Positions 3,017 through 45,716 of a stretch of DNA of 64,000 nucleotides are shown piece after piece. The position numbers and the translations under genes are program-made. The stretch lies in the sequence record OR637327.1; one strand, given 5' to 3'. Below the pieces are notes generated by a model. That model was not told the DNA's origin. It did no database searches and saw only the letters and a program-made list of their open reading frames with translations. Position 1 is the stretch's first letter. Every line of letters begins with the position of its first letter. Source of the DNA: Klebsiella phage iPHaGe-KPN-11i.

Positions 3017-3082
3017 AAAAAGCCCTTGCATTCGTGCAGGGGCTTTTGTTATATTAGGGGTGTCGAAACAAAGGAGGCAATC
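3017..3082 (+). promoter_or_regulatory. terminator-promoter-leader cassette (copy a, diverged)
   Basis: Hairpin agcccttgca-ttcg-tgcaggggct plus a T-run. Then TTGTTATATTA (TGnTATATT extended -10-like) and AGGAGG RBS before the ATG at 3083. Confidence 0.5.
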
Positions 3083-3223
3083 ATGAAACTTTACTGGCTG
3101 GTGTTCTCAAACGGGTTTGTAATGAAAGGCACTGTTCACTGTGCGAAAACTTATTGCAAATGGAATGAATGCTCTTTCCGTATCCTGAGCGTTGCATCTT
3201 CTCAACCTGTAGGGGATTACTAA
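3083..3223 (+). CDS. small protein (46 aa, Cys-rich)
   Basis: Start placed after the cassette leader with a strong AGGAGG RBS. The upstream in-frame sequence is translated leader. Confidence 0.35.
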   Translation: MKLYWLVFSNGFVMKGTVHCAKTYCKWNECSFRILSVASSQPVGDY

Positions 3224-3312
3224 TGACTGGTGATAAGTGGGTTGATAAAACTTTGTTGTTGACAGTAATCTACTTTCTGGTAAAATACCTGGTGTAGACA
3301 AAGGAGGGAGTT

Positions 3313-3453
3313 ATGAGAAACTTACTGAATATCGCGGAAATCTTTTGCTATGGTGTCGCTGTGTATGTCCTGTTTAACGGTGACGGCGCGGGATACTGGA
3401 TCATGTTCGGTGGTGGATTGTTCCTCTCTTTCCTCAAACGATTCTTTAAGTGA
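3313..3453 (+). CDS. small membrane protein (46 aa)
   Basis: AAGGAGGGAG RBS. Hydrophobic Gly-rich segment IFCYGVAVYVLF...GGGLFLSFL. Below the ORF-track length cutoff. Confidence 0.3.
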   Translation: MRNLLNIAEIFCYGVAVYVLFNGDGAGYWIMFGGGLFLSFLKRFFK

Positions 3454-3460
3454 GAAATAT

Positions 3461-3784
3461 ATGATGAAAAAATTTAGTGTGATCACCCCTGCTGATCTGA
3501 GAATTCTCGATCTGCGTCAATTATGTGCGGTATTTGGTGGCGAGAAAACGTTGCGTCAGATCTCCGATGAACTGAAAGCGAAATATCCGCACCAATGCCC
3601 GAAATGTGAGGGTAAAGGGTTCGAAGTCAAACGTGTTAACACGTATCCTTCTGGCTTGCCGGATTCTGGCTGGGTTGATCAGATGGAAGATATCAGTTAC
3701 GTGTGTGATATCTGTAACGGGCAAGGCTTCACCAAAGAACGCCTTATCGCAAAACCTGTCAAAGTGGAATATGTACCCGCATGA
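3461..3784 (+). CDS. zinc-ribbon protein (CxxC x2)
   Basis: CPKCEGKG...CDICNGQG paired Cys motifs. Internal ATG chosen after the small TM ORF. Confidence 0.45.
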   Translation: MMKKFSVITPADLRILDLRQLCAVFGGEKTLRQISDELKAKYPHQCPKCEGKGFEVKRVNTYPSGLPDSGWVDQMEDISYVCDICNGQGFTKERLIAKPVKVEYVPA

Positions 3785-4083
3785 AAATTACCGATCTCGT
3801 AAAGGCGGCTAATGCGCTGGTAACAAGCGATCATTACGTCAACTACTGCGAGCAATACCCTGTTCCCCTGGAACGCGCGATTGCTCAATCCGGTTATGAC
3901 GGTATCAGTACCGTAACCGTTGAAAACCTGAAAACGTTCATCGTGTTTGCTAACACGTTCTGGATGTACTTACCCGATAATATCGGAATCCGCCAGCCTA
4001 CTTTTTTCACGCTGTGCATGTTCTGTGAAACTTATCTCCCTGAATGCGATGACTACGAAGAACATTATGGAAAAAGTGAATAA
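3781..4083 (+). CDS. hypothetical protein (100 aa)
   Basis: ORF, ATGA-coupled. Confidence 0.45.
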   Translation: MKITDLVKAANALVTSDHYVNYCEQYPVPLERAIAQSGYDGISTVTVENLKTFIVFANTFWMYLPDNIGIRQPTFFTLCMFCETYLPECDDYEEHYGKSE

Positions 4084-4333
4084 AGTATCCCTGATATTCT
4101 TCGATCCGAAACTCGGTATCACGTTCTGTAACGGATTCGCGCCGAACGCCGAAGAAATGTTCAGGATTGCATTTAGCAATGAACCTGACAAACTCGATAA
4201 AGAAGTGTTGGCAGAGATAAACAAAACTGGTACGCTGTATTATGCCCGACGCAACGACATTGTGAACGGCATTCAGTACCAATCAACCCTTGAAAAACTC
4301 AAAACTGAACTGAAAGAAATAGGTGAATTATGA
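4067..4333 (+). CDS. hypothetical protein (88 aa)
   Basis: ORF. Start at MEKVNK overlaps the end of the upstream gene. Confidence 0.4.
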   Translation: MEKVNKVSLIFFDPKLGITFCNGFAPNAEEMFRIAFSNEPDKLDKEVLAEINKTGTLYYARRNDIVNGIQYQSTLEKLKTELKEIGEL

Positions 4334-4575
4334 CTTCTACAGCTATTCAACAACAAACCATTGATCATGATGCTGAATTCGCACAACTGATCAAAGAACA
4401 TAACGCTTTTGCGGCTTCTCGCGTCAATGAAGAAAGCGAACAGACCCGCCGATCCCTCTGGGTTGCCATTTACCGCGAAGTGTTCAGCGAGAAATCCGCT
4501 AACAAACACACTCAGGCAGTTGATGCAGCAGATAAAGCGCTGGCAGCATACGATCGTAAGTTCGGAGCACAGTAA
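4330..4575 (+). CDS. hypothetical protein (81 aa)
   Basis: ORF, ATGA-coupled on both sides. Confidence 0.45.
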   Translation: MTSTAIQQQTIDHDAEFAQLIKEHNAFAASRVNEESEQTRRSLWVAIYREVFSEKSANKHTQAVDAADKALAAYDRKFGAQ

Positions 4576-4988
4576 TGGAACGGTCTGCTGGTATTCTCTT
4601 CCTGAATAACGGCAGCGTTTTAATGGGCCACGCAACCGAAACGCCTCATTGGGACATCCCAAAGGGGCATATCGAAAAAGGCGAAGAACCTATTCACGCT
4701 GCGATCCGTGAGTGCTTCGAAGAAACCGGAGTTCTTGTTGAACCGCACGAACTGGAAAGCCTCGGAAGACTGGATTATACCAGTAAAAAAGAGCTTTACT
4801 TATTCGTGTATAAAGGCAATAATTACCCCGAAGCCGATAAATGCTTCTGTGCGTCAACGTTCGTGAAGAACGGGCGAACCATCACAGAAATGGACGGTTT
4901 CAAATATGTTCCGTATAGCCAGATCCGCGATCATGCGCGTAAGACTATGGGACAACTTCTATCTAAACTTGTGGGATATACATCATGA
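4575..4988 (+). CDS. Nudix hydrolase
   Basis: Nudix box GHIEKGEEPIHAAIRECFEETGV (GX5EX7REUXEEXGU). Confidence 0.7.
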   Translation: MERSAGILFLNNGSVLMGHATETPHWDIPKGHIEKGEEPIHAAIRECFEETGVLVEPHELESLGRLDYTSKKELYLFVYKGNNYPEADKCFCASTFVKNGRTITEMDGFKYVPYSQIRDHARKTMGQLLSKLVGYTS

Positions 4989-5365
4989 AAGCAACTACTT
5001 TCCAAATCTGCCAAATGATCCTTCTGGCTACCGCAACCCGCGCCGCTGAACCTATCGCGTATCAGTCATGGGGTGATTCATTCACCGTGAAAAATATTCG
5101 CGATCTGCCTGGACGCCTTTACGCTTCCCCTGATTTCGAACCCGTCGATCCGAATGATTTGACGCTGGAAGAAATGAAAAATCTGGGCTTCCGTAAGTGG
5201 AGCGACGATTCAAACATGATGCTGATCCCTCTGTATCTGTTGCCATACCTGAAAGACGGTTTCCGCGCTATCAGTATCAGCGGTGAAGAATTTGAATTCA
5301 GCACTGGTGAATCAGATAACGATCATCGTATGGGGCTGCTGTCTTTCGGGGCATTGCCTAAATGA
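4985..5365 (+). CDS. hypothetical protein (126 aa)
   Basis: ORF, coupled. Confidence 0.5.
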   Translation: MKATTFQICQMILLATATRAAEPIAYQSWGDSFTVKNIRDLPGRLYASPDFEPVDPNDLTLEEMKNLGFRKWSDDSNMMLIPLYLLPYLKDGFRAISISGEEFEFSTGESDNDHRMGLLSFGALPK

Positions 5366-5622
5366 GTCACGTTGATTTCAACACCTTATCTCAATTGGGG
5401 CTGATTTGGAAAATCAATAAAGATATCCTGCATCCCCTGGGGCTGGCGTTGACGCGTGATCCTGAAACTGGCGTATCAATCGGTGCGCTGGTTTCCGATG
5501 ATGGTGTCTGGTCGTTCAGCGAAAAATCAGACTTTGAAAACATCGCAAAGTTGAATAAACTTTATGCTTTACAGGCCGAAGGAAAGCTGTTAGAGTTCCT
5601 ACAACAAAACGTGAAAGAGTGA
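5362..5622 (+). CDS. hypothetical protein (86 aa)
   Basis: ORF, coupled. Confidence 0.5.
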   Translation: MSHVDFNTLSQLGLIWKINKDILHPLGLALTRDPETGVSIGALVSDDGVWSFSEKSDFENIAKLNKLYALQAEGKLLEFLQQNVKE

Positions 5623-5628
5623 TATATT

Positions 5629-5967
5629 ATGACTTACAAAGCTGGCGATCGTGTAGTAACCGTTAAGGATGGTAAGTTTGCCAAAGCCGGAACGCACGGA
5701 ATTGTCAATACCGACCGTGATGGTATTCTGGGTGTGGTTGGGCCGGATCATGGAAAATCAACATTATTCGAAACAGACAAAGTGCGTATCGCAACCGCTG
5801 CTGATCCTGGTTACTATGGAACCCGCGACGAGTTCGAAAGTGAAAAGGATCAGGAGATCGCAGAACTGAAAACTAAAGTTCATAACGCGCGGGTGTTGGC
5901 GGTGATTTGCCTTACCGTTGCGGCTATCAATACTGGTTTGTTGGGTTGGGTGGTGAATCATGTCTAA
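5629..5967 (+). CDS. hypothetical protein with C-terminal TM helix
   Basis: Hydrophobic C-terminus VLAVICLTVAAINTGLLGWVV. Confidence 0.5.
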   Translation: MTYKAGDRVVTVKDGKFAKAGTHGIVNTDRDGILGVVGPDHGKSTLFETDKVRIATAADPGYYGTRDEFESEKDQEIAELKTKVHNARVLAVICLTVAAINTGLLGWVVNHV

Positions 5968-6493
5968 AGATGATATTCCGGTTCATAACCGTATCCGCGA
6001 TCAGTTAACTTTTCGCAGTCGCGATCACGCGATCATGGTTGGGAGTTATCTGCATTGGTGGAAGAATAAAGATCTGGATCTGAATCCATCTTATCAGCGC
6101 CCCTATGTGTGGACGCAGAAAGAGCAAGATGCGTTTCTGACTACCCTGATCAGTGGTTTCCCTTGCGGTATCATCGCGATCGCGGTTGATAGCCAGTTCA
6201 ACGAAACTCACTGGGTAGAAGTCATCGACGGTAAACAACGCCTGACGACGATTATCAAAGTCTACGAAGGTGAAATTGGGATTCCTATGCCGGACGGTTC
6301 CCGTTTGTTCTGGGACGAAATGCCACGACACGAACAGCGAGCCTTTGAAAACATTTCATTACCTGCCCTGGGGCTGGATGAATGCACCAAAAAGGATCGT
6401 CTGGAATTCTTCATCAAACTGAACTTCGCGGGTGTGCCTCAATCTCAAGATCACATGAACCGCGTCCTGGAAATGTATAAGGCTGCAAAATGA
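5960..6493 (+). CDS. DUF262/ParB-like nuclease-domain protein
   Basis: DGKQRLTT motif (the DGQQR signature of DUF262/ParB-like NTPase folds). YQRPYVW upstream of it. Confidence 0.45.
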   Translation: MSKDDIPVHNRIRDQLTFRSRDHAIMVGSYLHWWKNKDLDLNPSYQRPYVWTQKEQDAFLTTLISGFPCGIIAIAVDSQFNETHWVEVIDGKQRLTTIIKVYEGEIGIPMPDGSRLFWDEMPRHEQRAFENISLPALGLDECTKKDRLEFFIKLNFAGVPQSQDHMNRVLEMYKAAK

Positions 6494-6798
6494 ACAAAGA
6501 CGAAGAACTGTATATGGATTCAGCAGAACCAAACCAGTTTATCATCGGCAAAGAAGATCATGAACTGTTGCAAGCGGTTAAAAACTTGCTGGCGTATTCT
6601 CATATCCGCGTACCGAATGGCGATAATGCAAAACTGGAAATCTCGTGTTCTGGTTATGGTTACACCGCTACCGCTGATAAACTCATTAGCTATTCCGCAT
6701 CAAGAACCCGTGAACTGGTTCATTACCGCGATAAATTGAGTGAAGAAATCCATCAAACTCAGGTAATTGTAGACCAGTTGCCAGAAAAATTCGATTAA
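6490..6798 (+). CDS. hypothetical protein (102 aa)
   Basis: ORF, coupled. Confidence 0.5.
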   Translation: MNKDEELYMDSAEPNQFIIGKEDHELLQAVKNLLAYSHIRVPNGDNAKLEISCSGYGYTATADKLISYSASRTRELVHYRDKLSEEIHQTQVIVDQLPEKFD

Positions 6799-6803
6799 AG
6801 TGA

Positions 6804-6877
6804 AAAAAGCCCTTGCAGCAATGCAGGGGCTTTGTTATATTACACACATCGAAACGAAACAGAGAAAGGAAAACATC
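6804..6877 (+). promoter_or_regulatory. terminator-promoter-leader cassette (copy b)
   Basis: Hairpin gcccttgcagcaatgcaggggc with a T-run. Then TTGTTATATTACACACATCGAAACGAAACAG and the RBS AAAGGAAA. Confidence 0.55.
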
Positions 6878-7081
6878 ATGAACATGAACAAAAACATTGC
6901 TTCTGTAGTTGGTTGTGAAGTTTCTAACGCAGAACGTTATGACAACGGTTTCTCTTTCTGTGTTCCGACTGAACTCGATGCGTACAAAGCCGCATACAAA
7001 TACCGCACTATGCCGATGGTGAACGTTACTTACTCACCGAACATCGAAATGTGGGTTGTTCAGGTTTACAACAAAGTATGA
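6878..7081 (+). CDS. small protein (67 aa), probably highly expressed
   Basis: First ATG after the conserved leader. Confidence 0.5.
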   Translation: MNMNKNIASVVGCEVSNAERYDNGFSFCVPTELDAYKAAYKYRTMPMVNVTYSPNIEMWVVQVYNKV

Positions 7082-7272
7082 ACTTCCACGAACGCAAGGC
7101 CGCACGAACCGATTATTATATGCGGTTCGTGTATGGCTGGAAATTACGGAAATGTGTTGCATGTAATGGATCTGGGCGATATGATAGCGACCGATCTCCG
7201 AAATGCAGTTCATGTAATGGAACCGGAAAAGAACGCTTTAAACCTGTGAGGAATATATTATGCAACATGTGA
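7078..7272 (+). CDS. zinc-finger protein (CxxC...CxxC)
   Basis: CVACNGSG...CSSCNGTG. ATGA overlap with the upstream gene. Confidence 0.4.
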   Translation: MNFHERKAARTDYYMRFVYGWKLRKCVACNGSGRYDSDRSPKCSSCNGTGKERFKPVRNILCNM

Positions 7273-7676
7273 ATCTCAACCCAAAAATGGAAAAGTATCT
7301 GAATCGCCGTCATGACAACCAGGCGCAAAGGGATCAGGAACGCGCAATCAACATTGAAACGGCTAAACTCCTTACCCAGATGTTCCGTAAGTTTCCTAGC
7401 AAATTCCCATGCAATTCTATGCATTCAAGTAACTGTATCAGCGTAGAACTGGCTGATAAGCGTTGTATCAGGGTTAACCTGGCTTACGGGTTATCCGAAG
7501 ACGGATATAACCTGGTGATGGGCTGGACATCAATGATTGGCAACTTCGTTGAACAGAACAATATTGAGTTCAATATGATGCGCTCTGATTTGTTCCAGTG
7601 TCCGGTCGATTCAATCAATATCGGTAGCCTTTACGCTATCCTTCGCGCACAATATGATTTGTGGAGTACAAAATGA
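7260..7676 (+). CDS. hypothetical protein (138 aa)
   Basis: ORF. Confidence 0.5.
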   Translation: MQHVNLNPKMEKYLNRRHDNQAQRDQERAINIETAKLLTQMFRKFPSKFPCNSMHSSNCISVELADKRCIRVNLAYGLSEDGYNLVMGWTSMIGNFVEQNNIEFNMMRSDLFQCPVDSINIGSLYAILRAQYDLWSTK

Positions 7677-8263
7677 AAGTAACAAGTGAAAAACTTGAAG
7701 AAATTGAAAAATCAGCCCGTTCGATTTCTTTTATGATGGGTAGTAAGTGGACTCTCGTTGAAAATATGAGCATCCAGGGAAATCAGGAATATGGTTTCAG
7801 GGGCAAAGAGTATAAACGCGCGTTCTCATATGGTGTTCCATATGGCGACAGCCCTACACAGATTAAAAGCTGGGAAGAGGGTCTCGGAAAATATCTGGAA
7901 ACCGTAGATCCGCAAACGGTTCTGGATCTGGTTAGCGATCTGTCACTCGCGCTTCGAGACAAGCAAAAAGCAGAATCAGAAGCCGCACACTGGAAAGCAA
8001 ATCATGAATGTGAAGTATCCCGCGCCCGTGTCCTCAAAGAGCGTCCTGATATGCCGCTGGAGCGCGTCAACGCATACAACCGTATGGTTGAGTTAGAAGA
8101 GGAAAACAAAGCCTTAAAACAGCGTATAGCGAGCCTGGAGGATGTCAATCAAACCCGCATGATGTTGCAGATGATTCAGGGTATGGTGATTGATACCCAA
8201 AACATGAACCGCGAACAACTGCGCTACTGGCAAACACATTTCCGCAATCCTAACGGGTGGTAA
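7673..8263 (+). CDS. hypothetical coiled-coil protein
   Basis: GGAG RBS before the ATG at 7673. Coiled-coil-like C-terminal half. Confidence 0.5.
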   Translation: MKVTSEKLEEIEKSARSISFMMGSKWTLVENMSIQGNQEYGFRGKEYKRAFSYGVPYGDSPTQIKSWEEGLGKYLETVDPQTVLDLVSDLSLALRDKQKAESEAAHWKANHECEVSRARVLKERPDMPLERVNAYNRMVELEEENKALKQRIASLEDVNQTRMMLQMIQGMVIDTQNMNREQLRYWQTHFRNPNGW

Positions 8264-8264
8264 T

Positions 8265-8513
8265 ATGTTCGGACGAAAACGAGAATGTAAACATGTTGCT
8301 ACCGGATGGATGCGGGGAACTCCTTACGCCTGGATGCATCATTCCGTAACCGATGGGATCGGGCGTATACATGGCGATATGTATGCAACATGCGACAAGT
8401 GCGGGGAGAAGTTTTTGATGTGTAAGATACACGTTGACCACGCGATCCGTGAGCTGGCAAAACATCCAATCACCCGCGCCGAAATCCTTCGAATCCTCGA
8501 AGAAACAAAATAG
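8265..8513 (+). CDS. hypothetical Cys/His-rich protein (82 aa)
   Basis: ORF with a CDKCGEK...H..H zinc-binding-like pattern. Confidence 0.45.
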   Translation: MFGRKRECKHVATGWMRGTPYAWMHHSVTDGIGRIHGDMYATCDKCGEKFLMCKIHVDHAIRELAKHPITRAEILRILEETK

Positions 8514-8526
8514 CACTTTTTGTTTA

Positions 8527-8602
8527 AAAAGCCCCTTGCAACCGCCAGGGGCTTTTGTTATATTACACACATCGAAACGAAACAGACAAAAAGGAAATCA
8601 TC
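8527..8602 (+). promoter_or_regulatory. terminator-promoter-leader cassette (copy c)
   Basis: Hairpin gccccttgcaaccgccaggggc plus TTTT. Then TTGTTATATTACACACATCGAAACGAAACAG and the RBS AAAGGAAA. Confidence 0.55.
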
Positions 8603-8881
8603 ATGAAACTTGTTCGCGAAGCAATCAAACTGGGTAACGAATACAACGGCAAATGGTACTTCATCATTTATGACGACAACGCAGAAAAACTGGAAAAAGT
8701 TGAAGATGCATTACGTGCGATGGAAACTGGTGCTTCTGTTGGTGGTAAAGTGATGACCTGGGAAAACTACTGCGACGGTTGCCCTTGCTACAACGATGGT
8801 TTCGGTTCTGGTTTCTGGGTTGAGATTGAAGACGTTCCAGCGTTCAAAGCCGCCTGGAAAATCGCTAAGAAAATGGCATAA
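8603..8881 (+). CDS. small protein (92 aa)
   Basis: First ATG after the conserved leader. Confidence 0.5.
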   Translation: MKLVREAIKLGNEYNGKWYFIIYDDNAEKLEKVEDALRAMETGASVGGKVMTWENYCDGCPCYNDGFGSGFWVEIEDVPAFKAAWKIAKKMA

Positions 8882-8910
8882 TTAGCACGAATTGCTAAAA
8901 CTCGATAACC

Positions 8911-8952
8911 CTGATTTGTTATTGTACACACATCGAAACGAAGGAGGATATC
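8911..8952 (+). promoter_or_regulatory. promoter-leader element (copy d, no hairpin)
   Basis: TTATTGTACACACATCGAAACGAAGGAGG precedes the ATG at 8953. Confidence 0.45.
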
Positions 8953-9204
8953 ATGGAAATCATCTACAAAAGCCGGAACTACAAAAAAGAAGATGTTGCA
9001 GCAGTTTACATCAAGTACCGGAACGTGAAATGTGAGTACAGTGGGGCATGGGGTTATGAAATCGTTGTTGAAGAAGTTAACGCCGACAACAAAACCATTT
9101 GCAGTTTCACCACTAACACCGATAGCCCTCTGTTCACTACTGAACAGCTTGAACAGGCTTATGAACTGCGCAACCAGTCTTTTAACGCGGTACGTATCAA
9201 ATGA
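8953..9204 (+). CDS. hypothetical protein (83 aa)
   Basis: ORF after the leader motif. Confidence 0.5.
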   Translation: MEIIYKSRNYKKEDVAAVYIKYRNVKCEYSGAWGYEIVVEEVNADNKTICSFTTNTDSPLFTTEQLEQAYELRNQSFNAVRIK

Positions 9205-9346
9205 GATTCCGTCCTTATATCGAATTCCTTCGCGGTATCAGTGAGATCCTGAACCGCGAAATCAAACCCAGTCCGTTAGCCGTTGAGCTTTACCGACTGG
9301 ACGCAACCCCCGAAGATGCAGCGAAAGATTACGGAGATCAGTTATA

Positions 9347-9607
9347 ATGTTAACTTTTGAAGAGTACAAAGCACAGCGTGATCAGTTAAGCAACTGGTAC
9401 AGAGAGATCGGCGCGGAGTTGAGCGCATACCCTAAAAACGAAATGGGGATGACGATCGAATCAATCCGTAATACGCCGGAATACAAAGCGAAACGTGCTT
9501 TGTGCAACAAGGTTTTCCAACAGCTTCGCACCCTTAACGGGAAGTACATTAAACTGTACAAAAAAGAACTGGCTGACGAACGTAAACTGAAACGGAGTGT
9601 AAAATGA
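9347..9607 (+). CDS. hypothetical protein (86 aa)
   Basis: ORF. Confidence 0.45.
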   Translation: MLTFEEYKAQRDQLSNWYREIGAELSAYPKNEMGMTIESIRNTPEYKAKRALCNKVFQQLRTLNGKYIKLYKKELADERKLKRSVK

Positions 9608-14472: not shown

Positions 14473-14943
14473 ATGATTTCACAATTCTATGTTGACGCTG
14501 TAAAGCAGTCACGTAACCTGCACCTTGCGCGAATCGTTGATGGGCGTTGGGGGCAAGAATGCGGCGGTGTGTCTATCTTCGAAACTGCGCTGGATATGGG
14601 CCGGATGTCGGGTAAAACCAAAGCGGCTTTCGATATCATCAAGCAGTCGAAAGGGACACTGAATATCTACGTTGCGCCGACAAAGCAAATGGGTATTTGT
14701 GCTGCGGCAGAACATGGAATGGATAAGGGCGCTGATTCGTCTTTCATTCTGTCGAAACGTCAAGATCTGAATACCATTTTCCGTGGACAAACGATCAAGT
14801 ATCAGGCAATCAACCTGATTTTCGATGAATGCGACATGACGATCGACGAACGGTTTGAACTGGCAAAAACACTGACCTTGTGTATGCGTTCAAGTCATCT
14901 TCACCCGTTCCCATATATCCATATTATCCGTTTGGGTATGTAA
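14473..14943 (+). CDS. hypothetical protein (156 aa)
   Basis: ORF. Confidence 0.45.
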   Translation: MISQFYVDAVKQSRNLHLARIVDGRWGQECGGVSIFETALDMGRMSGKTKAAFDIIKQSKGTLNIYVAPTKQMGICAAAEHGMDKGADSSFILSKRQDLNTIFRGQTIKYQAINLIFDECDMTIDERFELAKTLTLCMRSSHLHPFPYIHIIRLGM

Positions 14944-15455
14944 TGAAAAGTCATGGTTATTCATCAAGAACCATACAGGAAGAGATTCAAGGGATTGAGT
15001 CTCTTCTGAGTTATGTAGATGTTGATACATCTACGGGAAAAGTGTATTGGAAAATTCAGCGCGGCCCTATGTCTCCTGGAAGTGAAGCCGGAAGCAAGAA
15101 CGAGTATTCCCAAATTCATTTTAAAGGTTCTATGTATTTGCGACACCGAATAGTGTTTTACGTTGAGAATGGTTATCTTCCTCCTATCGTAGATCATGTG
15201 TATGGTGTTGAAAATGGAGATACAGCAAGAAATCTACAGAAAGCGACGAACCAACAAAACGCGATGAAAAAGAAATGTAATTCAAACAGCAGTACGGGGT
15301 TGAAAGGTGTTTCTTATCACAAAGCAAATGGGAAGTATAAAGCGCAGATAAACATAGATGGAAAAAGAAAATTTTTGGGGTATTATACCACTCCAGAAGA
15401 AGCAAAAGCCGTTTATGACCGGAAAGCGAAAGAGGTTTTCGGCACATTTTTTTAA
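14943..15455 (+). CDS. HNH homing endonuclease with AP2 DNA-binding domain
   Basis: HRIVFY...DHV..N HNH core and a C-terminal LKGVSYHKANGKYKAQI...GYYTTPEEA AP2 domain. Confidence 0.7.
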   Translation: MKSHGYSSRTIQEEIQGIESLLSYVDVDTSTGKVYWKIQRGPMSPGSEAGSKNEYSQIHFKGSMYLRHRIVFYVENGYLPPIVDHVYGVENGDTARNLQKATNQQNAMKKKCNSNSSTGLKGVSYHKANGKYKAQINIDGKRKFLGYYTTPEEAKAVYDRKAKEVFGTFF

Positions 15456-17057: not shown

Positions 17058-17288
17058 GGTTATTATGGTTCAAGTTGTAAGCATTACCCCAAAACAAACT
17101 GCCTGTCGTTGTGGTGCTGTTCTGTCATACACTGCGCAGGATATCAAAGAGAAGGTATCAACCGATTATACAGGCGGTCGTGATGTGTATCGTGTGATCC
17201 GGTGTCCGGTCTGTGATAAGGATGTAGTAGTATGAAACGCTGAATTTATCGCGAACAGACTACGTGCGGCGAAACCCATTTAAAAATG

Positions 17289-17996: not shown

Positions 17997-18062
17997 AAAA
18001 AGCCCTTGCGAAATTGCAAGGGCTTTTTTATTATGTGTGTACCAACTATTGAGGATTAAATC
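17997..18062 (+). promoter_or_regulatory. terminator-promoter cassette (copy e, diverged)
   Basis: aaaagcccttgcgaaattgcaagggctttttt hairpin, then TTATTATGTGTGTACC before the ATG at 18063. Confidence 0.5.
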
Positions 18063-18467
18063 ATGAGTACATCACATCGAGTTATTACCAGTCACCCGAC
18101 TATCATCAAGCCGAACATGCTACACATCATTCAGGGTGTGCTGGACGAACTGAACAAAGATCCAAAGGTTAAAGTAGACACCATCACGGTCGATCGTCAT
18201 CGCATGGAATCTTTCAGCATTTACTTCGCATATGGTGAAGAAAAACGCAAACTGTTTATCTGTGAAAGTCAAGATATGTATCTTGACGTTGATGATAACA
18301 CAATTCATAGCGGTGGCGTTTACTTCAACCTGAACGTGTGGGGTAGCAACAAAGAGATCATGGATATCGTGAAAGTGGGTATTCGTAAGCACGTCCCGAA
18401 TGACGTTAGCATTTACGAATGTGTTAATGATGCAATTGAAGATCGCTTTGTGCGTGTGGGGGCGTAA
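18063..18467 (+). CDS. hypothetical protein (134 aa)
   Basis: ORF. Confidence 0.5.
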   Translation: MSTSHRVITSHPTIIKPNMLHIIQGVLDELNKDPKVKVDTITVDRHRMESFSIYFAYGEEKRKLFICESQDMYLDVDDNTIHSGGVYFNLNVWGSNKEIMDIVKVGIRKHVPNDVSIYECVNDAIEDRFVRVGA

Positions 18468-21764: not shown

Positions 21765-21789
21765 TGTATTTTTAGACTAATTTTACATA

Positions 21790-21811
21790 AGGGGCGATTC
21801 GCCCCTTTTTT
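21790..21811 (+). terminator. rho-independent terminator
   Basis: aaggggcgattcgcccctt plus TTTTTT. Confidence 0.55.
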
Positions 21812-21871
21812 GCTATAAATATATACAGGAACGGATCTATTGTTGATCCGTAAGCACGTAGAGAATTGCTT

Positions 21872-24775: not shown

Positions 24776-24850
24776 AAAAAAGCCCTTGCGTTCGCGTGAG
24801 GGCTTTTGTATTATATACACATACCGCATGAATAATGAAAAGGAAGAAAA
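24776..24850 (+). promoter_or_regulatory. terminator-promoter-leader cassette (copy f)
   Basis: Hairpin agcccttgcgttcgcgtgagggct. Then TTTTGTATTATATACACATACCGCATG...AAAAGGAAG RBS. Confidence 0.5.
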
Positions 24851-25045
24851 ATGAATACGATCAACGTTTCTAAAGCTGATGTTATGAAAGCAACGATTAT
24901 TGCTACCGAAGCCATTTCATTCATGGCTAAGAAAGCAGGAGTTGATGGTGCTGTTATCCTGATGGAGATTACAAACAACCCAGAAGGCAACACCGCAAGG
25001 TATTTCAAAGATCTTACTTCCTATGCAATGGAAGAATTTAAATGA
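24851..25045 (+). CDS. small protein (64 aa)
   Basis: First ATG after the cassette. Confidence 0.5.
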   Translation: MNTINVSKADVMKATIIATEAISFMAKKAGVDGAVILMEITNNPEGNTARYFKDLTSYAMEEFK

Positions 25046-27491: not shown

Positions 27492-27730
27492 TGTATCCTA
27501 AATTGTCCGGCGCTGAAATTGATGTTCTGTATAAACTTTACGGATACGCAACTAAAGTGCTAGACTTAGATTTCAATGACGTACCCAGCAAATCAGGGCG
27601 TGATTCCCTGATTCAAAAAGGTTACGCTCGAAGAGTAACGGGTTATCACGATAATTCGAAAGCATGGTTGCTGATTACCCCACTGGGGATTGACGCATAC
27701 CGACACGGTATTAAAACGGAGTGGCACTAA
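27488..27730 (+). CDS. hypothetical protein (80 aa)
   Basis: ORF, coupled. Confidence 0.45.
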   Translation: MMYPKLSGAEIDVLYKLYGYATKVLDLDFNDVPSKSGRDSLIQKGYARRVTGYHDNSKAWLLITPLGIDAYRHGIKTEWH

Positions 27731-27990
27731 TGACTGATGTTATTTTGAAAGTTAAAGATGTTGTACTGGGCGATACCAAAAACCCAGACGCGGTTACACT
27801 GGAACAGGCTGTTGTTCAGATCATGCGCGATAGCCTCCGCCTGGAAGTTACTGAACGCACCGAAAGCAATTACACGGGCGGAATTGATGGTCGCCAGTTG
27901 TACGAAGATAACAAACACGTTAATGTAACCCTATGGGCGGACATTGACGAAAACTCATACAAAATTGACGAGATTGATTTTGACGTATGA
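27721..27990 (+). CDS. hypothetical protein (89 aa)
   Basis: ORF, coupled. Confidence 0.45.
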   Translation: MALMTDVILKVKDVVLGDTKNPDAVTLEQAVVQIMRDSLRLEVTERTESNYTGGIDGRQLYEDNKHVNVTLWADIDENSYKIDEIDFDV

Positions 27991-28910: not shown

Positions 28911-29428
28911 GAACAATCGAAGAAGAACAGAAAGGAATTGACGAATTCCTTAAAACTGTTTCTGTTGATATACAAACGGGGACAATTATACGAACGTCAC
29001 ACAAACGTTCTGACTTGATCGGAAAGGAAATAGGTTCGAAGATTAAAGGAGGATATACCCGCGTTTATTTCAAAAGCAAAGGATATCTACGTCATCGAAT
29101 CATCTACTACGTTGCAACCGGAAAACTGCCTGATGTGATTGATCACAAAAATGGTGTTGAGGCTGGCGACGGGATTTATAACTTGCGTGAAGCGGATCAA
29201 TCCCGAAACTGTCAGAACCGGACTAAACGAAGAGTAGCAACCAGTCGATTCAAGGGTGTATGTGTACGTGATCAACCTACTGGAATACGTTACATTGCAC
29301 AGATAAAGATTGACGGCAAGGTTAAACATATCGGTTCCTATCGTGACGAATACGAGGCTGCAAAAGCATACGATCGGGAAGCGATAAAACATTTTGGTAA
29401 ATTTGCAAAATTAAACATTGCATACTGA
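28892..29428 (+). CDS. HNH homing endonuclease with AP2 domain
   Basis: HRIIYYV...DHKNG HNH core and an AP2-like FKGVCVRDQPTGIRYIAQIKIDGKVKHIGSYRDEYEAA. Confidence 0.7.
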   Translation: MSHNGLRTIEEEQKGIDEFLKTVSVDIQTGTIIRTSHKRSDLIGKEIGSKIKGGYTRVYFKSKGYLRHRIIYYVATGKLPDVIDHKNGVEAGDGIYNLREADQSRNCQNRTKRRVATSRFKGVCVRDQPTGIRYIAQIKIDGKVKHIGSYRDEYEAAKAYDREAIKHFGKFAKLNIAY

Positions 29429-29436
29429 CCAGGATA

Positions 29437-29481
29437 GTGATACATTATCTTTACCGAAACGAAACTGAAAAGGAACATACC
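29437..29481 (+). promoter_or_regulatory. leader element (copy g, partial)
   Basis: CCGAAACGAAACTGAAAAGGAAC precedes the ATG at 29482. Confidence 0.35.
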
Positions 29482-29760
29482 ATGACTTTTAATGACCTGT
29501 TTAACGGATGTACTGGCGCTGGTGCGAAATTCAATCTACTGAAAGATTACCCGCTGGGTTCTAATCCAGGTTACGTGATGGTTGAAGTGCGTAACGGTGA
29601 ATACTACAACGTGTTCATGTGGGATCGTTCTTTCTCTTACTGCTGGTTCGGTGCGAAATACAAACCAGATTACATCCTGGAACAAATCGAAACAGTGAAA
29701 GCGAAAAACCCTGAACTGTACGCGTTCGCAGAGTCTATTCGTGGTGTGTTCGGACACTGA
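29482..29760 (+). CDS. hypothetical protein (92 aa)
   Basis: Start set after the leader motif. A terminator follows. Confidence 0.5.
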   Translation: MTFNDLFNGCTGAGAKFNLLKDYPLGSNPGYVMVEVRNGEYYNVFMWDRSFSYCWFGAKYKPDYILEQIETVKAKNPELYAFAESIRGVFGH

Positions 29761-36055: not shown

Positions 36056-36130
36056 AAAAGCCCTTGCGTTCGCGTGAGGGCTTTGTTATATTACACATAT
36101 CGAAACGGAACAGCCAAAAGGAACGAGAAC
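36056..36130 (+). promoter_or_regulatory. terminator-promoter-leader cassette (copy h)
   Basis: Hairpin cccttgcgttcgcgtgaggg. Then TTTGTTATATTACACATATCGAAACGGAACAG and the RBS AAAAGGAAC. Confidence 0.55.
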
Positions 36131-36346
36131 ATGAAAGCTAAAATGATGAAGTTCGTAAAAGACTGGAGAAAAGGCGCGACAATCGGTGAGAGCTACGTAA
36201 TCGTAGACATCGAAAGCAACCTGCTCGAAGGTGCGAACGTTTTAGAAGTTCCTCGTTACGGTATGGTTGAAGCCGCTGATAAAGCAAAAGAACTGAATGG
36301 TTACGTTCTCCACATCATCGAAGCAATCGAGAAGGAATTAGCATGA
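36131..36346 (+). CDS. small protein (71 aa)
   Basis: First ATG after the cassette. Confidence 0.5.
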   Translation: MKAKMMKFVKDWRKGATIGESYVIVDIESNLLEGANVLEVPRYGMVEAADKAKELNGYVLHIIEAIEKELA

Positions 36347-37081: not shown

Positions 37082-37083
37082 GA

Positions 37084-37107
37084 AAAGCCCCTTTCGGGGC
37101 TTTTTTG
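37084..37107. terminator. bidirectional rho-independent terminator between convergent genes
   Basis: aaaagcccctttcggggctttttt with A/T runs on both sides. Confidence 0.6.
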
Positions 37108-43156: not shown

Positions 43157-43178
43157 GAATATAAAGGGAGGATGTCTA

Positions 43179-44282: not shown

Positions 44283-44653
44283 GCCGTAGTTTCTTCATGA
44301 TAGCCCATGAACAGGTCGAACACGTTGTTCTTGTTCTGTTTACGGGCTTTCTTGATATTCTCGTAGTTCTCGCGAGGCATATCAATCATGAAGCACTTCT
44401 GACGCGCTGTAGCGTTCTCTGTGAGCGCAAACAGTTCATCTTCGGTGTAATCCTTGTTTTTGTCCAGATCGAGAATGACGCATTGCCAGGTGTCTTCATC
44501 ACTGGTTTGCTGCATCATCACCAGTGCGGCGTTTTTGAATCCTAGATTATGCGCAAGCATTTCATGGACGAATTCACGATCCTGATCTTCATAACGGATT
44601 TCTTGTCCTTCCCAACGGATAAGGCGCACAGTCTTACTTGGTTCATTTTTCAT
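44279..44653 (-). CDS. hypothetical protein (124 aa)
   Basis: ORF convergent with 43179..44282. Confidence 0.45.
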   Translation of the reverse strand: MKNEPSKTVRLIRWEGQEIRYEDQDREFVHEMLAHNLGFKNAALVMMQQTSDEDTWQCVILDLDKNKDYTEDELFALTENATARQKCFMIDMPRENYENIKKARKQNKNNVFDLFMGYHEETTA

Positions 44654-44940
44654 AACGTGGTTTTCCTGCTCATAAGTTCGCGTAAACGTTTCGTCGGTTC
44701 AGGTGGGTTTTTGATGATCTCTTGAATCTGATCCCACACTTCCGGTGAAACTTCTTTCCTGTCCATGATAACGATATTCTGATTATCACAGCACTTTCCA
44801 ACCATTACGGATCGCCCACAATTAAGGCAAATCGTATCAGGGCATTTTCCAAGTTTATCAGGGTCGATAGATTCAAGGAATCTTCTTGCTACCGATAACC
44901 GCTCTTTAACTTCTATTGGGTCATATTCTTTATTTTTCAT
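44650..44940 (-). CDS. zinc-ribbon protein (96 aa)
   Basis: CPDTICLNCGRSVMVGKCC. Confidence 0.45.
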   Translation of the reverse strand: MKNKEYDPIEVKERLSVARRFLESIDPDKLGKCPDTICLNCGRSVMVGKCCDNQNIVIMDRKEVSPEVWDQIQEIIKNPPEPTKRLRELMSRKTTL

Positions 44941-45128
44941 GCTAACAATTGACTCCCCTCATAATTGGTAGGAACCCGACAGGCAAAAAACAATTGTTGG
45001 TGTTCCCAGTTTTTACGCGCCTGTTCTGGAGTATCACCCCATGCAGCATCAAACCCAGTTTTCGCACAGCACCAGCGAAGATTCGGGTCTTCGCTGATAG
45101 TTTCGAATATTTCGAGTTTCTTACTCAT
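44937..45128 (-). CDS. hypothetical protein (63 aa)
   Basis: ORF, coupled. Confidence 0.4.
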   Translation of the reverse strand: MSKKLEIFETISEDPNLRWCCAKTGFDAAWGDTPEQARKNWEHQQLFFACRVPTNYEGSQLLA

Positions 45129-45304
45129 TTCAGGTCACCGATAATTTCCATCGCGGCTTCGATGTTTTCAACACCACCAAAGGTATTCCAACTTACTTCA
45201 AGGAGTTTGATACCAGGAAGATAAACCCCAACCAGCGCACCGATAGCATCGTGGATAGCGTAGTTGCCGTTTTGAAGTTGATTTGCAGTGTGCATAACTT
45301 TCAT
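45125..45304 (-). CDS. small protein (59 aa)
   Basis: Start reassigned to the ATG after the minus-strand CATCGAAACGAAAGGAGA leader. The listed N-terminal extension is translated leader. Confidence 0.45.
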   Translation of the reverse strand: MKVMHTANQLQNGNYAIHDAIGALVGVYLPGIKLLEVSWNTFGGVENIEAAMEIIGDLK

Positions 45305-45350
45305 GATGTTTCTCCTTTCGTTTCGATGTAGGTAATGTACCACTACATTA
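45305..45350 (-). promoter_or_regulatory. promoter-leader element (copy j, minus strand)
   Basis: Reverse complement reads GGTAATGTAGTGGTACATTACCTACATCGAAACGAAAGGAGAAACATC-ATG. Confidence 0.4.
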
Positions 45351-45365
45351 CCCAGAACACAAGCA

Positions 45366-45638
45366 TTATTTTTCGATTTCGTAGCACTCTTCAACTTCGA
45401 TGTTTACCAGAGGTACTTCGATATCCCATGAATCCGCTTGTGCATCGTATACGGCTTTGTCTTCGTCGTTCAGAGGCAGACAAGTAACCCAACCGTCAGT
45501 AACGCGCATCACGCGCATTTTAGAAAGGCTTTCGAGTGCGTCCGCTGGCAGTTTTTCACCACCGTTACCCAGTTGTGCCAAACGGTCTTCATTTACCAGA
45601 ACGATTACTTTGCCTTCGAGTTCTTTAGTGATTTGCAT
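45366..45638 (-). CDS. hypothetical protein (90 aa)
   Basis: First ATG after the minus-strand cassette. Confidence 0.5.
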   Translation of the reverse strand: MQITKELEGKVIVLVNEDRLAQLGNGGEKLPADALESLSKMRVMRVTDGWVTCLPLNDEDKAVYDAQADSWDIEVPLVNIEVEECYEIEK

Positions 45639-45716
45639 GGGATGTTCCTTTTGTCTGTTTCGTTTCGATGTGTGTAATATACAAAAAGCCCCTCACATAT
45701 GCAAGGGGCTTCTTTA
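45639..45716 (-). promoter_or_regulatory. terminator-promoter-leader cassette (copy i, minus strand)
   Basis: Reverse complement reads agccccttgcatatgtgaggggct-TTTTTGTATATTACACACATCGAAACGAAACAGACAAAAGGAAC. It terminates the ligase gene and drives 45366..45638. Confidence 0.55.

Follow-up and report, generated by a model that had tools for sequence, protein, structure and literature searches.

Promoter-early stem-loops (PeSLs) were defined as a class in RB49 and phi1, where reporters proved both promoter and terminator function (Arbiol et al. 2010, PMC2839356), and they are also found in T4/PST and KVP40/nt-1 (Comeau et al. 2014, PMC4122927). Their accessible text does not describe Pseudotevenvirus or Slopekvirus. 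According to the accessible parts of the RB43 papers (Nolan et al. 2006, PMC1524935; Perrody et al. 2012, PMC3486835), RB43 early promoters have G at -33, G/C at -36 and an A-rich tract at -40 to -44, and a northern blot detected transcription of a gene under such a promoter 5 to 8 min post infection. Those parts give a promoter logo and describe no embedded terminator hairpin or shared leader; the experimentally tested RB43 rki promoter is of the TTGACA type and has no hairpin. T1-like phages carry a 21-nt intergenic direct repeat, aaATAGCACnnnTTGnTAAAA, for which a stoperator, an enhancer site and an UP element were offered as candidate roles with none chosen (TLS paper, 2024, PMC11447400).

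The window, a 64,000-nt stretch of Klebsiella phage iPHaGe-KPN-11i (OR637327.1), comes from a T4-type myovirus of the genus Pseudotevenvirus (RB43-like) and is 97-99% identical to Klebsiella, Enterobacter and Cronobacter phages. A preliminary description had listed ten copies of one repeated cassette. The family is real and far above chance: the 31-mer TTGTTATATTACACACATCGAAACGAAACAG occurs four times at <=3 mismatches versus 0 in 100 shuffles, and CATCGAAACGAAA five times versus 0.26 expected. The sites are not uniform, however, and fall into three structural classes. At 7/10, a hairpin has its T-run abutting the -10 hexamer, and five of these seven (3017, 6804, 8527, 36056 and, on the minus strand, 45639) also have the ACACAC-ATCGAAACGAAAC leader, in the variant form GTCGAAACAAAGG at 3017. 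The leader motif is absent from the other two hairpin sites (17997 and 24776), while 8911, 29437 and 45305 (minus strand) have promoter and leader and no hairpin. All ten are intergenic, share the orientation of the downstream gene and end in a Shine-Dalgarno sequence (SD) and ATG, with 27-38 nt separating the -10 hexamer from the ATG. The copies are as follows.

3018..3085, plus strand: full cassette with variant leader; hairpin 3018-3047 (-20.2 kcal/mol, z -5.2; called a terminator by the scanner), -35 TTGCAT 3026-3031, 18-bp spacer, TGT plus -10 TATATT 3050-3055, leader GTCGAAACAAAGGAGG 3062-3077, ATG 3083; cargo, a 46-aa ORF (phrog_7770).
6806..6880, plus strand: full cassette; hairpin 6806-6833, -35 TTGCAG 6813-6818, 17-bp spacer, TGT plus TATATT 6836-6841, predicted +1 at 6848, leader ATCGAAACGAAACAG 6848-6862, SD AAGGA, ATG 6878.
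8510..8605, plus strand: full cassette with 21-nt upstream motif; ATAGCACTTTTTGTTTAAAAA starts at 8510, hairpin 8527-8556, -35 TTGCAA 8536-8541, 17-bp spacer, TGT plus TATATT 8559-8564, leader 8571-8585, ATG 8603; cargo, a 92-aa DUF5417 ORF.
8882..8955, plus strand: hairpin-less copy in T1-like register; 21-mer TTAGCACGAATTGCTAAAA from 8882, TGT plus -10 TATTGT 8920-8925, ACACAC, leader ATCGAAACGAAGGAGG 8932-8947 overlapped by the SD, ATG 8953; 43 nt from the end of TAGCAC to ATCGAAAC, matching Webervirus.
17997..18065, plus strand: hairpin and promoter, leader motif absent; perfect 14-bp hairpin 17997-18028 (-20.5 kcal/mol, z -6.1), -35 TTGCGA 18006-18011, 17-bp spacer, -10 TATTAT 18029-18034, ATG 18063.
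24778..24853, plus strand: hairpin and promoter, different leader; hairpin 24778-24807, -35 TTGCGT 24786-24791, -10 TATTAT 24809-24814, ATG 24851.
29418..29484, plus strand: hairpin-less promoter and leader; TTGCAT 29418-29423, 17-bp spacer, TACATT 29441-29446, leader ACCGAAACGAAAC 29453-29465, ATG 29482.
36057..36133, plus strand: full cassette; hairpin 36057-36084, -35 TTGCGT 36064-36069, TGT plus TATATT 36087-36092, leader ATCGAAACGGAACAG 36099-36113, ATG 36131.
45302..45362, minus strand: hairpin-less promoter and leader; TTGTGT 45362-45357, 17-bp spacer, TACATT 45339-45334, leader ATCGAAACGAAAGGAG 45327-45312, ATG 45304-45302.
45636..45731, minus strand: full cassette with 21-nt upstream motif, 3' of DNA ligase; AATAGCACTTTTTGCTAAAG starts at 45731, hairpin 45712-45684 (-21.2 kcal/mol, z -6.1), -35 TTGCAT 45704-45699, -10 TATATT 45681-45676, leader 45669-45655, ATG 45638-45636; the KP27 orthologue of this copy is annotated as terminator plus promoter.

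The hairpin consensus given earlier, GCCCTTGC-N4-GCAAGGGC, has no literal match at <=2 mismatches. The actual hairpins have stems of 12-14 bp closed by 4-nt loops, with G-U pairs frequent on the right arm. Folding energies of all seven lie between -18 and -21 kcal/mol (z -4.0 to -6.1), a stability equalled in 0/200 shuffles. Among 15 distinct copies the left arm hardly varies, and the right arm retains pairing by wobble or compensatory changes, such as C-G to T-A in copy 64323 and TTGACT/GTTGAG in copy 51451 of the near-identical genome PP889458. The window also holds plain terminators, with GAAA tetraloops followed directly by SD and ATG; these have no TTG and no -10. The proposed composite of intrinsic terminator, sigma-70-type promoter and short shared 5' leader before early-strand genes is supported: an independent scanner called the hairpins terminators and copy 8527 also a promoter (TTGCAA-17-TATATT with TG), the KP27 and Miller records annotate the element as terminator plus promoter and terminator plus RBS, respectively, and the element agrees with the description of RB43 early promoters. 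Over the 2500-9500 stretch, this generic scanner called a promoter at 1/3 hairpin copies. Transcription probably terminates at these hairpins, as it does at the PeSLs of RB49/phi1 tested with reporters.

Does the promoter work without a -35 box, as had been proposed? The sequences argue otherwise. In 7/7 hairpin copies the left arm contains a TTGCnn -35, spaced 17-18 bp from the -10 (TTGACT replaces it in one genome copy), although it agrees with the consensus at only 3-4/6 positions. The suggested extended -10 held for the 4/7 hairpin copies with a canonical TGn and failed for the rest. The start proposed near ACACA was close: the predicted +1, 7 nt past the -10, is the A of AUCGAAAC. Judged by its sequence, the A-run is the UP-like tract that RB43 early promoters have at -40 to -44. 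Analogy with the reporter-tested PeSLs and with the RB43 gene seen by northern blot suggests that the cassettes are active promoters.

In the record of Klebsiella phage KP27 the orthologue of the cassette is labelled 'putative middle promoter; discovered using MEME', and the sub-consensus -35 would suit a middle-mode promoter dependent on a MotA/AsiA-type activator. However, the Mot box (TGCTTtA centred at -30) is absent and a TTG-type -35 stands at the canonical distance instead. RB43, the type member of the genus, has neither a MotA orthologue nor a middle-promoter consensus, going by the accessible text (PMC1524935; PMC3486835); MotA/AsiA is found among 0/289 annotated features of PP889458; and the promoter classes in the KP15/KP27 paper were derived by MEME with no experiments. 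We regard activator dependence as very improbable and the KP27 'middle promoter' label as not supported.

We conclude that the cassette is most likely the Pseudotevenvirus version of the PeSL, packing a terminator and a host-sigma-70 early promoter into ~75-80 bp. The cassette and the described PeSLs both begin with an A/T-rich tract and have a sigma-70 -35/N17/-10, a 3' SD and ATG, and a stem-loop overlapping the -35 or lying between -35 and -10. Both occur as many conserved copies in non-structural regions before ORFs of unknown function, and in both, within-element crossovers delete or swap ORFs among close relatives. The consensus of the cassette promoters, TTGC(A/G)n-N17-TA(T/A)(A/T)(T/A)T, is an almost exact match to TTGYVH-N17-TAWWAT of the nt-1/KVP40 PeSLs. 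Because this class is already described, the element is largely ordinary. It differs from described PeSLs in its genus-specific GCCC(C)TTGC stem (versus Gn-loop-Cn), in having the -35 as part of the stem (all seven hairpin copies of the window), in a strongly conserved, predicted-transcribed leader, and in the T1-type 21-nt upstream repeat of a subset. RB43 early promoters, from the same genus, share the -33, -36 and -40 to -44 features and, as far as the accessible text describes them, are sigma-70 dependent, MotA-free and placed before novel ORFs, as the cassettes appear to be. Lambdoid morons (promoter, gene, terminator) are likewise insulated, autonomously expressed single-gene additions to a phage genome. 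They lack a bounding conserved repeat that mediates homologous exchange, whereas all units here share one ~80-bp element in which the terminator overlaps the promoter.

In such an arrangement, the A-run at -44 to -40 would also flank the terminator on its 5' side, the left arm GCCC(C)TTGC would hold the -35, and the 17-18-bp spacer would consist of loop, right arm and T-run. The T-run would be the U-tract of the terminator and supply the TG of the extended -10 where one is present. After the -10 (TATATT or TATTAT) would come the discriminator ACACAC, and transcription would start at the A of AUCGAAACGAAAC. The leader, 22-30 nt long, unstructured and rich in A/C and purines, would be followed by the SD (AAGGA/GGAG) and the ATG. 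Upstream RNA polymerase would stop at the hairpin and U-tract, and host E-sigma-70 would restart 20-25 bp downstream. Hence, the cargo would be insulated and driven early after infection.

The claim that every copy precedes a small ORF of 46-92 aa is true of 9/10, the ORF after 17997 being 134 aa. Nor are small ORFs the only cargo: the unit headed by copy 6804 has five genes (6878-8513), and other copies in the genome stand before an Erf-like gene, a denV-like gene and a gene adjoining DNA polymerase. The ten cargo ORFs are mutually unrelated, belong to ten different PHROGs and have no assigned function; host takeover and anti-defence, the roles first suggested for them, are candidates. The cassette is found in 306 phage records, with 3-9 copies per T4-like genome and a single partial match in each of the ~50-kb siphovirus records among them. 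PP889458 carries 17 copies, all on the early-gene strand and 0/17 in the late/structural 31% of the genome (P = 0.0017).

A role of the cassettes as recombination joints, absent from the preliminary description, is visible among relatives. Cronobacter phage leB lacks 6883..8525 (plus strand), a segment of ~1.64-1.7 kb with five ORFs between the direct-repeat cassettes 6804 and 8527. The HSPs stop at q6882 and resume at q8526, with a 79-bp overlap in leB, one cassette length; its chimeric junction joins the left arm of 6804 to the loop and right arm of 8527, then the SD of 6804 to the ORF of 8603. Phage leE has two ORF swaps with breaks inside cassettes (24816 and 45320), one of them common to leB. 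At the first, leE has another -10, leader and ORF in place of 24817-25042, which extends from just past the hairpin to where the next gene starts; at the second, the ORFs 3' of the 45302..45362 copy are replaced in leE and leB directly after CATCGAAAC (45320). Relatives have a swapped gene 5' of the 29418..29484 copy, where the window has a putative homing endonuclease; the breakpoint falls at 29433-29464. Cassettes hold 5/44 breakpoints, an enrichment over a uniform null (p = 9e-4); against a null restricted to gene junctions there is none (5/29 vs 9.7% expected, p = 0.14). The majority of regional indels involve no cassette, and many fall at overlapping stop/start junctions or with homing endonucleases. 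Because direct-orientation copies precede unrelated ORFs, each probably offers an ~80-bp homology patch for phage recombination, which would yield cassette-bounded deletions, insertions and ORF swaps.

Multiple dispersed copies, some partial or degraded, and a loop of hairpin 3022 that is inverted relative to PP889458 could also reflect selfish mobile DNA of the MITE or REP kind, or repeats left behind by tandem gene duplication, with no regulatory role. We regard this as highly improbable. The intergenic, gene-oriented placement at a constrained distance from the ATG and the empty late/structural blocks speak against it, and neither terminal inverted repeats nor target-site duplications nor a transposase accompany the copies. 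The downstream ORFs are unrelated, so duplication does not account for the repeats.

The leader is predicted to be unstructured (MFE 0 to -0.9 kcal/mol) and is enriched in A+C (69% vs 51%, p = 1e-4), and the initiation region is less structured at cassette genes than at other genes (p = 0.007). Translational enhancer and RNase site, the roles first suggested for the leader, are candidates.

It is possible, though we lean against it, that ACACAC-AUCGAAACGAAAC is functionless and conserved only by hitch-hiking on gene conversion or recombination between copies. Mosaic exchange does occur: in PP889458 and leB, the SD-region variant AGAGAAAGGAAAAC is exchanged between the 6804 and 8527 sites; hairpin copies 17997 and 24776 carry quite different leaders; and, compared with F20, conservation from -10 to ATG is similar to that of coding sequence (75% vs 74%). 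In T1-like siphoviruses, however, the same leader 5' end, AUCGAAAC, is fixed 7 nt past the -10 while the promoter spacer differs in every copy. This position is kept at 5/5 ATCGAAAC sites in KLPN6 and at 129/414 distinct sites in IMG/VR loci, which looks like site-specific constraint and not recent copying. Sequence-divergent leaders also retain an A/C-rich, U-poor make-up (A+C 67%, T 11% vs 26% background).

Could the leader instead be a specific cis-regulatory RNA, whether a riboswitch or attenuator, a translational operator bound by a RegA-like repressor, or the target of an RNase like RegB? It is conserved in sequence and predicted to be transcribed, the genome encodes a RegA-like translation repressor, and the SD of three copies contains GGAG, the motif cleaved by T4 RegB. 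Yet no Rfam family matched the leader at the gathering threshold, the predicted lack of structure fits poorly, and the T1-like leaders vary in sequence with composition kept, which argues against one sequence-specific operator. We therefore consider a dedicated RNA element of this kind unlikely.

Window copies 8527, 8911 and 45639 and, in PP889458, copies 15658 and 63348 are preceded by the 21-mer, which is co-oriented with transcription and ~75-95 nt 5' of the ATG. It is the same 21-mer as the T1-like repeat. In T1-like phages it lies 22 bp 5' of the -10 and a canonical -35 is absent, whereas in the hairpin-type cassettes it sits 11 bp further upstream, behind a canonical -35. That the cassettes have the 21-nt upstream motif and the A/C-rich leader in common with T1-like siphoviruses is a new observation. 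That the outer parts of the cassette are shared with unrelated T1-like phages was unexpected.

We observed that the recurrent elements of the window form a genuine family. A 31-mer searched at up to three mismatches occurred 4 times in the window and 0 times in 100 shuffles, the core CATCGAAACGAAA was present 5 times against 0.26 expected, and the ten sites could be aligned. The preliminary description had read them as a terminator, a promoter and a shared leader upstream of early genes, and in outline this was right. The ten sites, named here by approximate position, are a modular family of unequal copies. Five carry hairpin, -10 and leader (3017, with a leader variant, 6804, 8527, 36056 and, on the minus strand, 45639); two carry hairpin and -10 with leaders of another type (17997 and 24776); and in three the hairpin is missing while promoter and leader are present (8911, 29437 and, on the minus strand, 45305). 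All ten are intergenic and oriented with the next gene, whose ATG lies 27-38 nt from the -10 and is preceded at 6-8 nt by a Shine-Dalgarno (SD) sequence, AAGGA or GGAG. Every copy had been said to precede an ORF of 46-92 aa; this holds for nine of the ten, and the remaining downstream ORF (the cargo) is 134 aa long. The seven hairpins range from -18 to -21 kcal/mol (z -4.0 to -6.1), each with a T-run after it. Because of their 12-14-bp stems, 4-nt loops and G-U pairs, the hairpin as first written, GCCCTTGC-N4-GCAAGGGC, had zero matches in the window at up to two mismatches; structure-aware scans took the place of that literal search.

Where does the promoter lie relative to the hairpin? In all seven hairpin copies a TTGCnn element sits in the left arm, separated from TATATT or TATTAT by 17 bp or, in one copy, by 18, and two hairpin-less copies read TTGCAT/TTGTGT-17-TACATT. 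The extended -10 without a -35 that had been proposed overlooked this embedded -35; the canonical TGn, with TG at -15/-14, occurs in 4 of the 7 hairpin copies. TGT-TATATT is found at 3017, 6804, 8527 and 36056, and TGT-TATTGT at 8911; the TG is off by one base in 45639 and 24776, and 17997 has none. The spacer is taken up by loop, right arm and T-run; the last of these doubles as the terminator U-tract and supplies the canonical TGn in those four hairpin copies. The predicted start is the A of AUCGAAACGAAAC, 7 nt past the -10, with an ACACAC discriminator ahead of it. Further upstream, a run of five to six A residues spans -44 to -40. For RB43 early promoters, Nolan et al. (PMC1524935) give G at -33, G/C at -36 and an A-rich, UP-like tract from -40 to -44, and with that description the cassette agrees.

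We compared 15 distinct hairpins, counting pairs from individual folds anchored on TTG, as a MAFFT alignment misregistered the GCCCC variants. The left arm was almost invariant, while the right arm varied by wobble or compensatory substitution. This pattern would follow from a left arm that has to serve both as stem and as -35. One copy in PP889458, a near-identical complete genome, lies upstream of an Erf-like gene and has TTGACT as its -35, with the stem kept by two wobble pairs. Between the hairpin at 3022-3043 and its counterpart at 152369 of PP889458, loop and inner stem differ by an inversion (GCATTCGTGC versus GCACGAATGC) that resembles the outcome of a template switch or of a cruciform-type event inside the palindrome. 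A generic scanner called the hairpins terminators and copy 8527 a promoter with TG, and ARNold annotation in phage KP27 likewise calls the hairpin a terminator. Plain terminators in the window (short GC stems, GAAA tetraloops, then SD and ATG) have neither TTG nor -10; hence the TTGC stem is specific to promoter-bearing hairpins. This second, promoter-less class has short GC stems and mostly GAAA or TTCG tetraloops, with SD and ATG directly 3'.

Hairpins of the second class in the window
1798, promoter-less hairpin
13193, promoter-less hairpin
16826, promoter-less hairpin
29766, promoter-less hairpin
33643, promoter-less hairpin
37082/37103, promoter-less hairpin (37082-37107), at the convergence of two strand blocks and reading as a terminator on both strands
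38806/38823, promoter-less hairpin
58944 (-), promoter-less hairpin
61231 (-), promoter-less hairpin

The preliminary description had not recognised that such elements belong to a published class. The promoter-early stem-loops (PeSLs) of RB49 and phi1 are small cassettes in which an AT-rich tract leads into a strong sigma-70-like promoter, combined with a stem-loop and with SD plus ATG, the stem-loop lying between -35 and -10, overlapping either box or flanking both; they are concentrated in hyperplastic regions, lacZ fusions demonstrated promoter and terminator activity, and inverse PCR detected mini-circles in RB49/phi1 (Arbiol et al. 2010, PMC2839356). The class was later widened to T4/PST and KVP40/nt-1, with an nt-1 consensus, TTGYVH-N17-TAWWAT (Comeau et al. 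2014, PMC4122927), that is essentially the cassette consensus found here. In our sites we find a sigma-70-type promoter (-35-like element, about 17 bp, -10-like element), a stable stem-loop adjoining or overlapping it in 7 of 10, an A/T-rich tract 5' of the -35, and SD and ATG at the 3' end of an intergenic, co-oriented element. There are many copies in non-structural regions before ORFs of unknown function, and close relatives differ by indels and ORF replacements with crossovers inside the element. The three hairpin-less sites match the "degraded" or "half" PeSLs of those papers. With all sequence-level defining features present, the cassette fits the class as the PeSL of Pseudotevenvirus/Slopekvirus. 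Its promoter and terminator functions are inferred from sequence together with the experiments on other genera. A literature search for transcriptomes of Pseudotevenvirus/Slopekvirus returned nothing relevant, and one for the motif strings returned only chance matches to primers.

Some database records describe these elements otherwise. At 711-743 and 1062-1090, the KP27 record (NC_020080) carries an ARNold terminator overlapping a MEME "putative middle promoter"; the phage Miller record has a terminator and RBS annotated at the cassette. Perhaps, then, these are T4-type middle promoters dependent on MotA? The "middle" class of KP27 was defined by MEME clustering alone. In the aligned cassettes, the stretch 11-13 bp before the -10 contains no Mot box, which reads (a/t)(a/t)(a/t)TGCTTtA and, centred at -30, takes the place of a -35. 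MotA and AsiA do not appear among the 289 annotated features of PP889458, and the published RB43 account reports no motA orthologue and no middle-promoter consensus. We therefore reject a MotA-dependent promoter: in a genus without MotA, and at sites without a Mot box, the KP27 label is probably wrong, and "middle promoter" should be dropped from the records that use it.

The window is 97-99% identical to phi1_146002 (Klebsiella, PP889458), CYPEBC003 (Enterobacter), leE, leN and leB (Cronobacter) and about 180 other records of about 178 kb; GenBank places leE and leB in Straboviridae, genus Pseudotevenvirus, RB43 group. Genes, called separately by strand block, run on the plus strand to about 37.1 kb and thereafter mostly on the minus strand, where a baseplate block comes first, followed by DNA ligase and more early genes; two tRNAs lie at 52.6-52.8 kb. 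The whole-genome motif search that had been proposed located 17 copies in PP889458, all on the early-gene strand and 0 in the 31% of the genome made up of late/structural blocks (P = 0.0017). Some of them precede larger genes, encoding the Erf-like annealing protein, a denV-like protein and a protein whose gene adjoins DNA polymerase, and copy 6804 heads a five-gene unit. Hence a "regulon of small proteins", as first suggested, is too narrow a description. BLAST found the cassette in 306 phage records, at 3-9 places in each T4-like record of about 174-182 kb and as one partial match in each siphovirus record of about 50 kb. The roughly 80-bp elements mark early transcription-unit boundaries in about 180 Pseudotevenvirus/Slopekvirus genomes on which phage therapy work for Klebsiella, Enterobacter and Cronobacter draws.

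Could the repeats have arisen by duplication of genes? No two of the ten cargo ORFs were significantly similar in an all-against-all blastp, and we reject this source. Each was assigned to a PHROG family of its own, none with a known function, and one is DUF5417; the host-takeover or anti-defence roles first suggested for them are hypothetical. As the cargo ORFs are mutually unrelated, the cassette is a portable non-coding module on unrelated genes. Against KP27 the cassette is more conserved than the cargo (84% versus 67%), against phage F20 the two are about equal, and for the 45305 unit the values are 88.5% for cassette and 90% for cargo. For engineering, the cassette would offer a ready-made, insulated, strong early expression unit, its activity being predicted, and a predictable recombination site for adding or removing cargo.

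We then compared the window with six relatives by local blastn. leB lacks window 6883-8525, a five-ORF segment lying exactly between cassettes 6804 and 8527, and its junction is chimeric: the 6804 flank and left arm are joined to the 8527 loop and right arm, followed by the 6804 SD region and ORF 8603. This deletion is a clean natural case, from a fourth T4-like lineage, of modular shuffling of the PeSL type. leE carries a different ORF behind cassette 24776, with a break at 24816; identity is lost between hairpin and -10 and regained at the start of the next gene. Downstream of the 45305 promoter, both leE and leB have other ORFs in place of those in the window, and the break, at 45320, falls directly past CATCGAAAC. 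All six relatives break at 29433-29464, where the homing-endonuclease gene upstream of 29437 is swapped. Across the six relatives, 5 of 44 breakpoint clusters fall in cassettes, an excess by a uniform null (p = 9e-4) that is no longer significant when a gene-junction null is used (p = 0.14), and most rearrangements in the window involve overlapping stop/start junctions or homing endonucleases. We conclude that cassettes are real recombination joints, directly visible against relatives; that they dominate among joints is not supported.

Gain and loss of ORFs at stop/start junctions is a route that does without cassettes: small extra ORFs (165-540 bp) in relatives sit exactly at such junctions, and the flanking alignments overlap by a few bases. 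Three presence/absence differences from the relatives that are unrelated to the cassettes are listed with these junctions.

Sites of ORF gain, loss or replacement in the window
3781-3787, extra-ORF junction in relatives
8879-8881, extra-ORF junction in relatives
17239-17244, extra-ORF junction in relatives
27726-27732, extra-ORF junction in relatives
63153-63156, extra-ORF junction in relatives
14943-15455, HNH endonuclease gene missing in leE and leB
28892-29428, putative homing endonuclease gene with another ORF in its place in five relatives
47259-47823, 565-bp insertion in the window, absent from 5 of 6 relatives (not resolved in EcL22g)

In PP889458 the SD-region variant of copy 6804 sits at the 8527 position, which indicates gene conversion between copies. 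If this phage alone is considered, conversion of this kind may have conserved the leader in a purely neutral way. The predicted 5' UTRs are unstructured (MFE 0 to -0.9 kcal/mol) and, compared with other initiation regions of the window, rich in A+C (69% versus 51%, p = 1e-4) and in purines (70% versus 58%), and the -30 to +30 region is less structured at cassette genes than at other genes (p = 0.007). A fixed 6-nt discriminator ties the leader to the -10 independently of the hairpin; at 63734 in PP889458, a plain TTGACC -35 has the identical -10 and leader. Spacing from leader to SD varies from 0 to 10 nt. Rfam at gathering score matched two tRNAs alone in the whole window and no family over leader or hairpin, and a known structured RNA was rejected. 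The leader is best taken, provisionally, as a generic, unstructured, U-poor leader and initial transcribed sequence that would keep the SD accessible for any ORF.

The siphovirus matches cover -10, leader and SD. In F20, an Enterobacter phage (Drexlerviridae, Webervirus), the match lies upstream of a homologue of ORF 8603 with 68% aa identity; positions 180-560 of the F20 locus L012 correspond to window 8505-8881, with the DUF5417 ORF and its upstream cassette in common. The upstream region there has the same layout and the AAATAGCACTTTTTG motif, with a shorter hairpin lacking TTGC. This cassette and its ORF have evidently moved together between phage families, to judge by the sequences. Neighbouring unrelated ORFs of F20 carry the same motifs. 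A multi-gene block common to F20 and the window was rejected, the DUF5417 ORF being the sole homologue. KLPN6, a complete Webervirus genome, has five ATCGAAAC sites, which all follow one arrangement (AAATAGCAC-N3-TTGnTAAA, then a variable GC stem-loop, TATNNT, 6 nt, ATCGAAAC, SD, ATG); TAGCAC stands a constant 43 nt from the start. With a gapped pattern, IMG/VR gave at least 118 stretches, and among the matches listed nearly all are in contigs of 45-53 kb.

A 21-nt intergenic repeat, aaATAGCACnnnTTGnTAAAA, has been described in phage TLS, with 18 intergenic copies, and also in T1, Rtp and Rogue1; its function was listed as an open question (2024, PMC11447400). We found this 21-mer upstream of three window cassettes, each time intergenic, co-oriented and upstream of a start codon.

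Matches to the 21-mer in the window, each with at most one mismatch
8510-8530 (+), 21-mer upstream of a cassette
8882-8902 (+), 21-mer upstream of a cassette
45710-45731 (-), 21-mer upstream of a cassette

KLPN6 has 16 sites of the 21-mer. Searched alone, with downstream sequence unconstrained, it occurred at 414 distinct sites in the fetched loci. At 250 of the 414 the best TAnnnT lies exactly 31 nt past TAGCAC, and TTGnTA is then 22 bp upstream of the -10. The consensus downstream of the 21-mer is c.cAtcgaaac. In the predicted leader, A+C make up 67% and T 11%, where the background has 26% T. ATCGAAAC follows at 43-44 nt in 129 of the 414 and at 54 nt in 4 more, a share that is inflated because the loci were fetched with ATCGAAAC; the unbiased figure, from KLPN6, is 5 of 14 intergenic 21-mer sites. 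General enrichment of the 8-mer AATAGCAC was rejected (9 observed versus 6.2 expected): what carries meaning is the complete 21-mer within a promoter, not AATAGCAC alone.

In T4-like genomes the 21-mer stands in two registers, one 43-44 nt from the start without a canonical -35 (window 8911; PP889458 63348), the other 54 nt from it with a canonical -35 (window 8527 and 45639; PP889458 15658, TTGACG). The two are 11 bp, or one helical turn, apart, the difference one would predict for an upstream element that is contacted from a single side of the helix. The 21-mer could be a UP-like contact for the alpha subunit or a factor site. What is modestly novel here is that the 21-mer and the A/C-rich leader are shared with T1-like siphoviruses. 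Might these observations belong together? One joint reading, which we consider possible but somewhat doubtful, is that the outer modules, the 21-nt ATAGCACnnnTTGnTAAAA and the A/C-rich leader starting AUCGAAAC, would constitute a promoter grammar shared across families, by RB43/KP15-like myoviruses and T1-like Drexlerviridae. The 21-mer would be the upstream half of the main T1-like promoter class, fixed 22 bp 5' of TATAAT without a canonical -35, and would be contacted, in a phase-dependent manner, by the alpha subunit of RNA polymerase or by an unknown factor. Early genes would then cross phage families on shared cassettes, already equipped for expression, as the DUF5417 gene may have done with F20. 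This tie gives the 2024 question on the role of the 21-mer a testable answer, and it suggests that phage families exchange genes with regulatory cassettes as their common currency.

Other composites of promoter and hairpin are present in the window. At 21787-21830 on the plus strand, a GC hairpin (AAGGGGCG-ATT-CGCCCCTT) and T-run lead directly into TATAAATA, a late promoter box of T4 type, upstream of an rI-like lysis-inhibition gene (22156 being the end of the gene that starts at 21872); by its sequence this is a putative terminator-plus-late-promoter composite, analogous to the early cassette. Promoters of early type with a near-consensus TTGACA -35 also occur, and those at 54.5 kb and 63.2 kb correspond to other PeSL subclasses.

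Near-consensus TTGACA promoters of early type in the window
54457-54525 (-), promoter with a stem-loop, GTGCGGGT...ACCCGCAC, spanning the -10
63151-63208 (-), promoter with TATAAT, then hairpin and T-run
Upstream of gene 3350 (+), promoter
Upstream of gene 12926 (+), promoter with AATAGCAC upstream and a ACGAAACAGA leader
Upstream of gene 13602 (+), promoter
Upstream of gene 22620 (+), promoter
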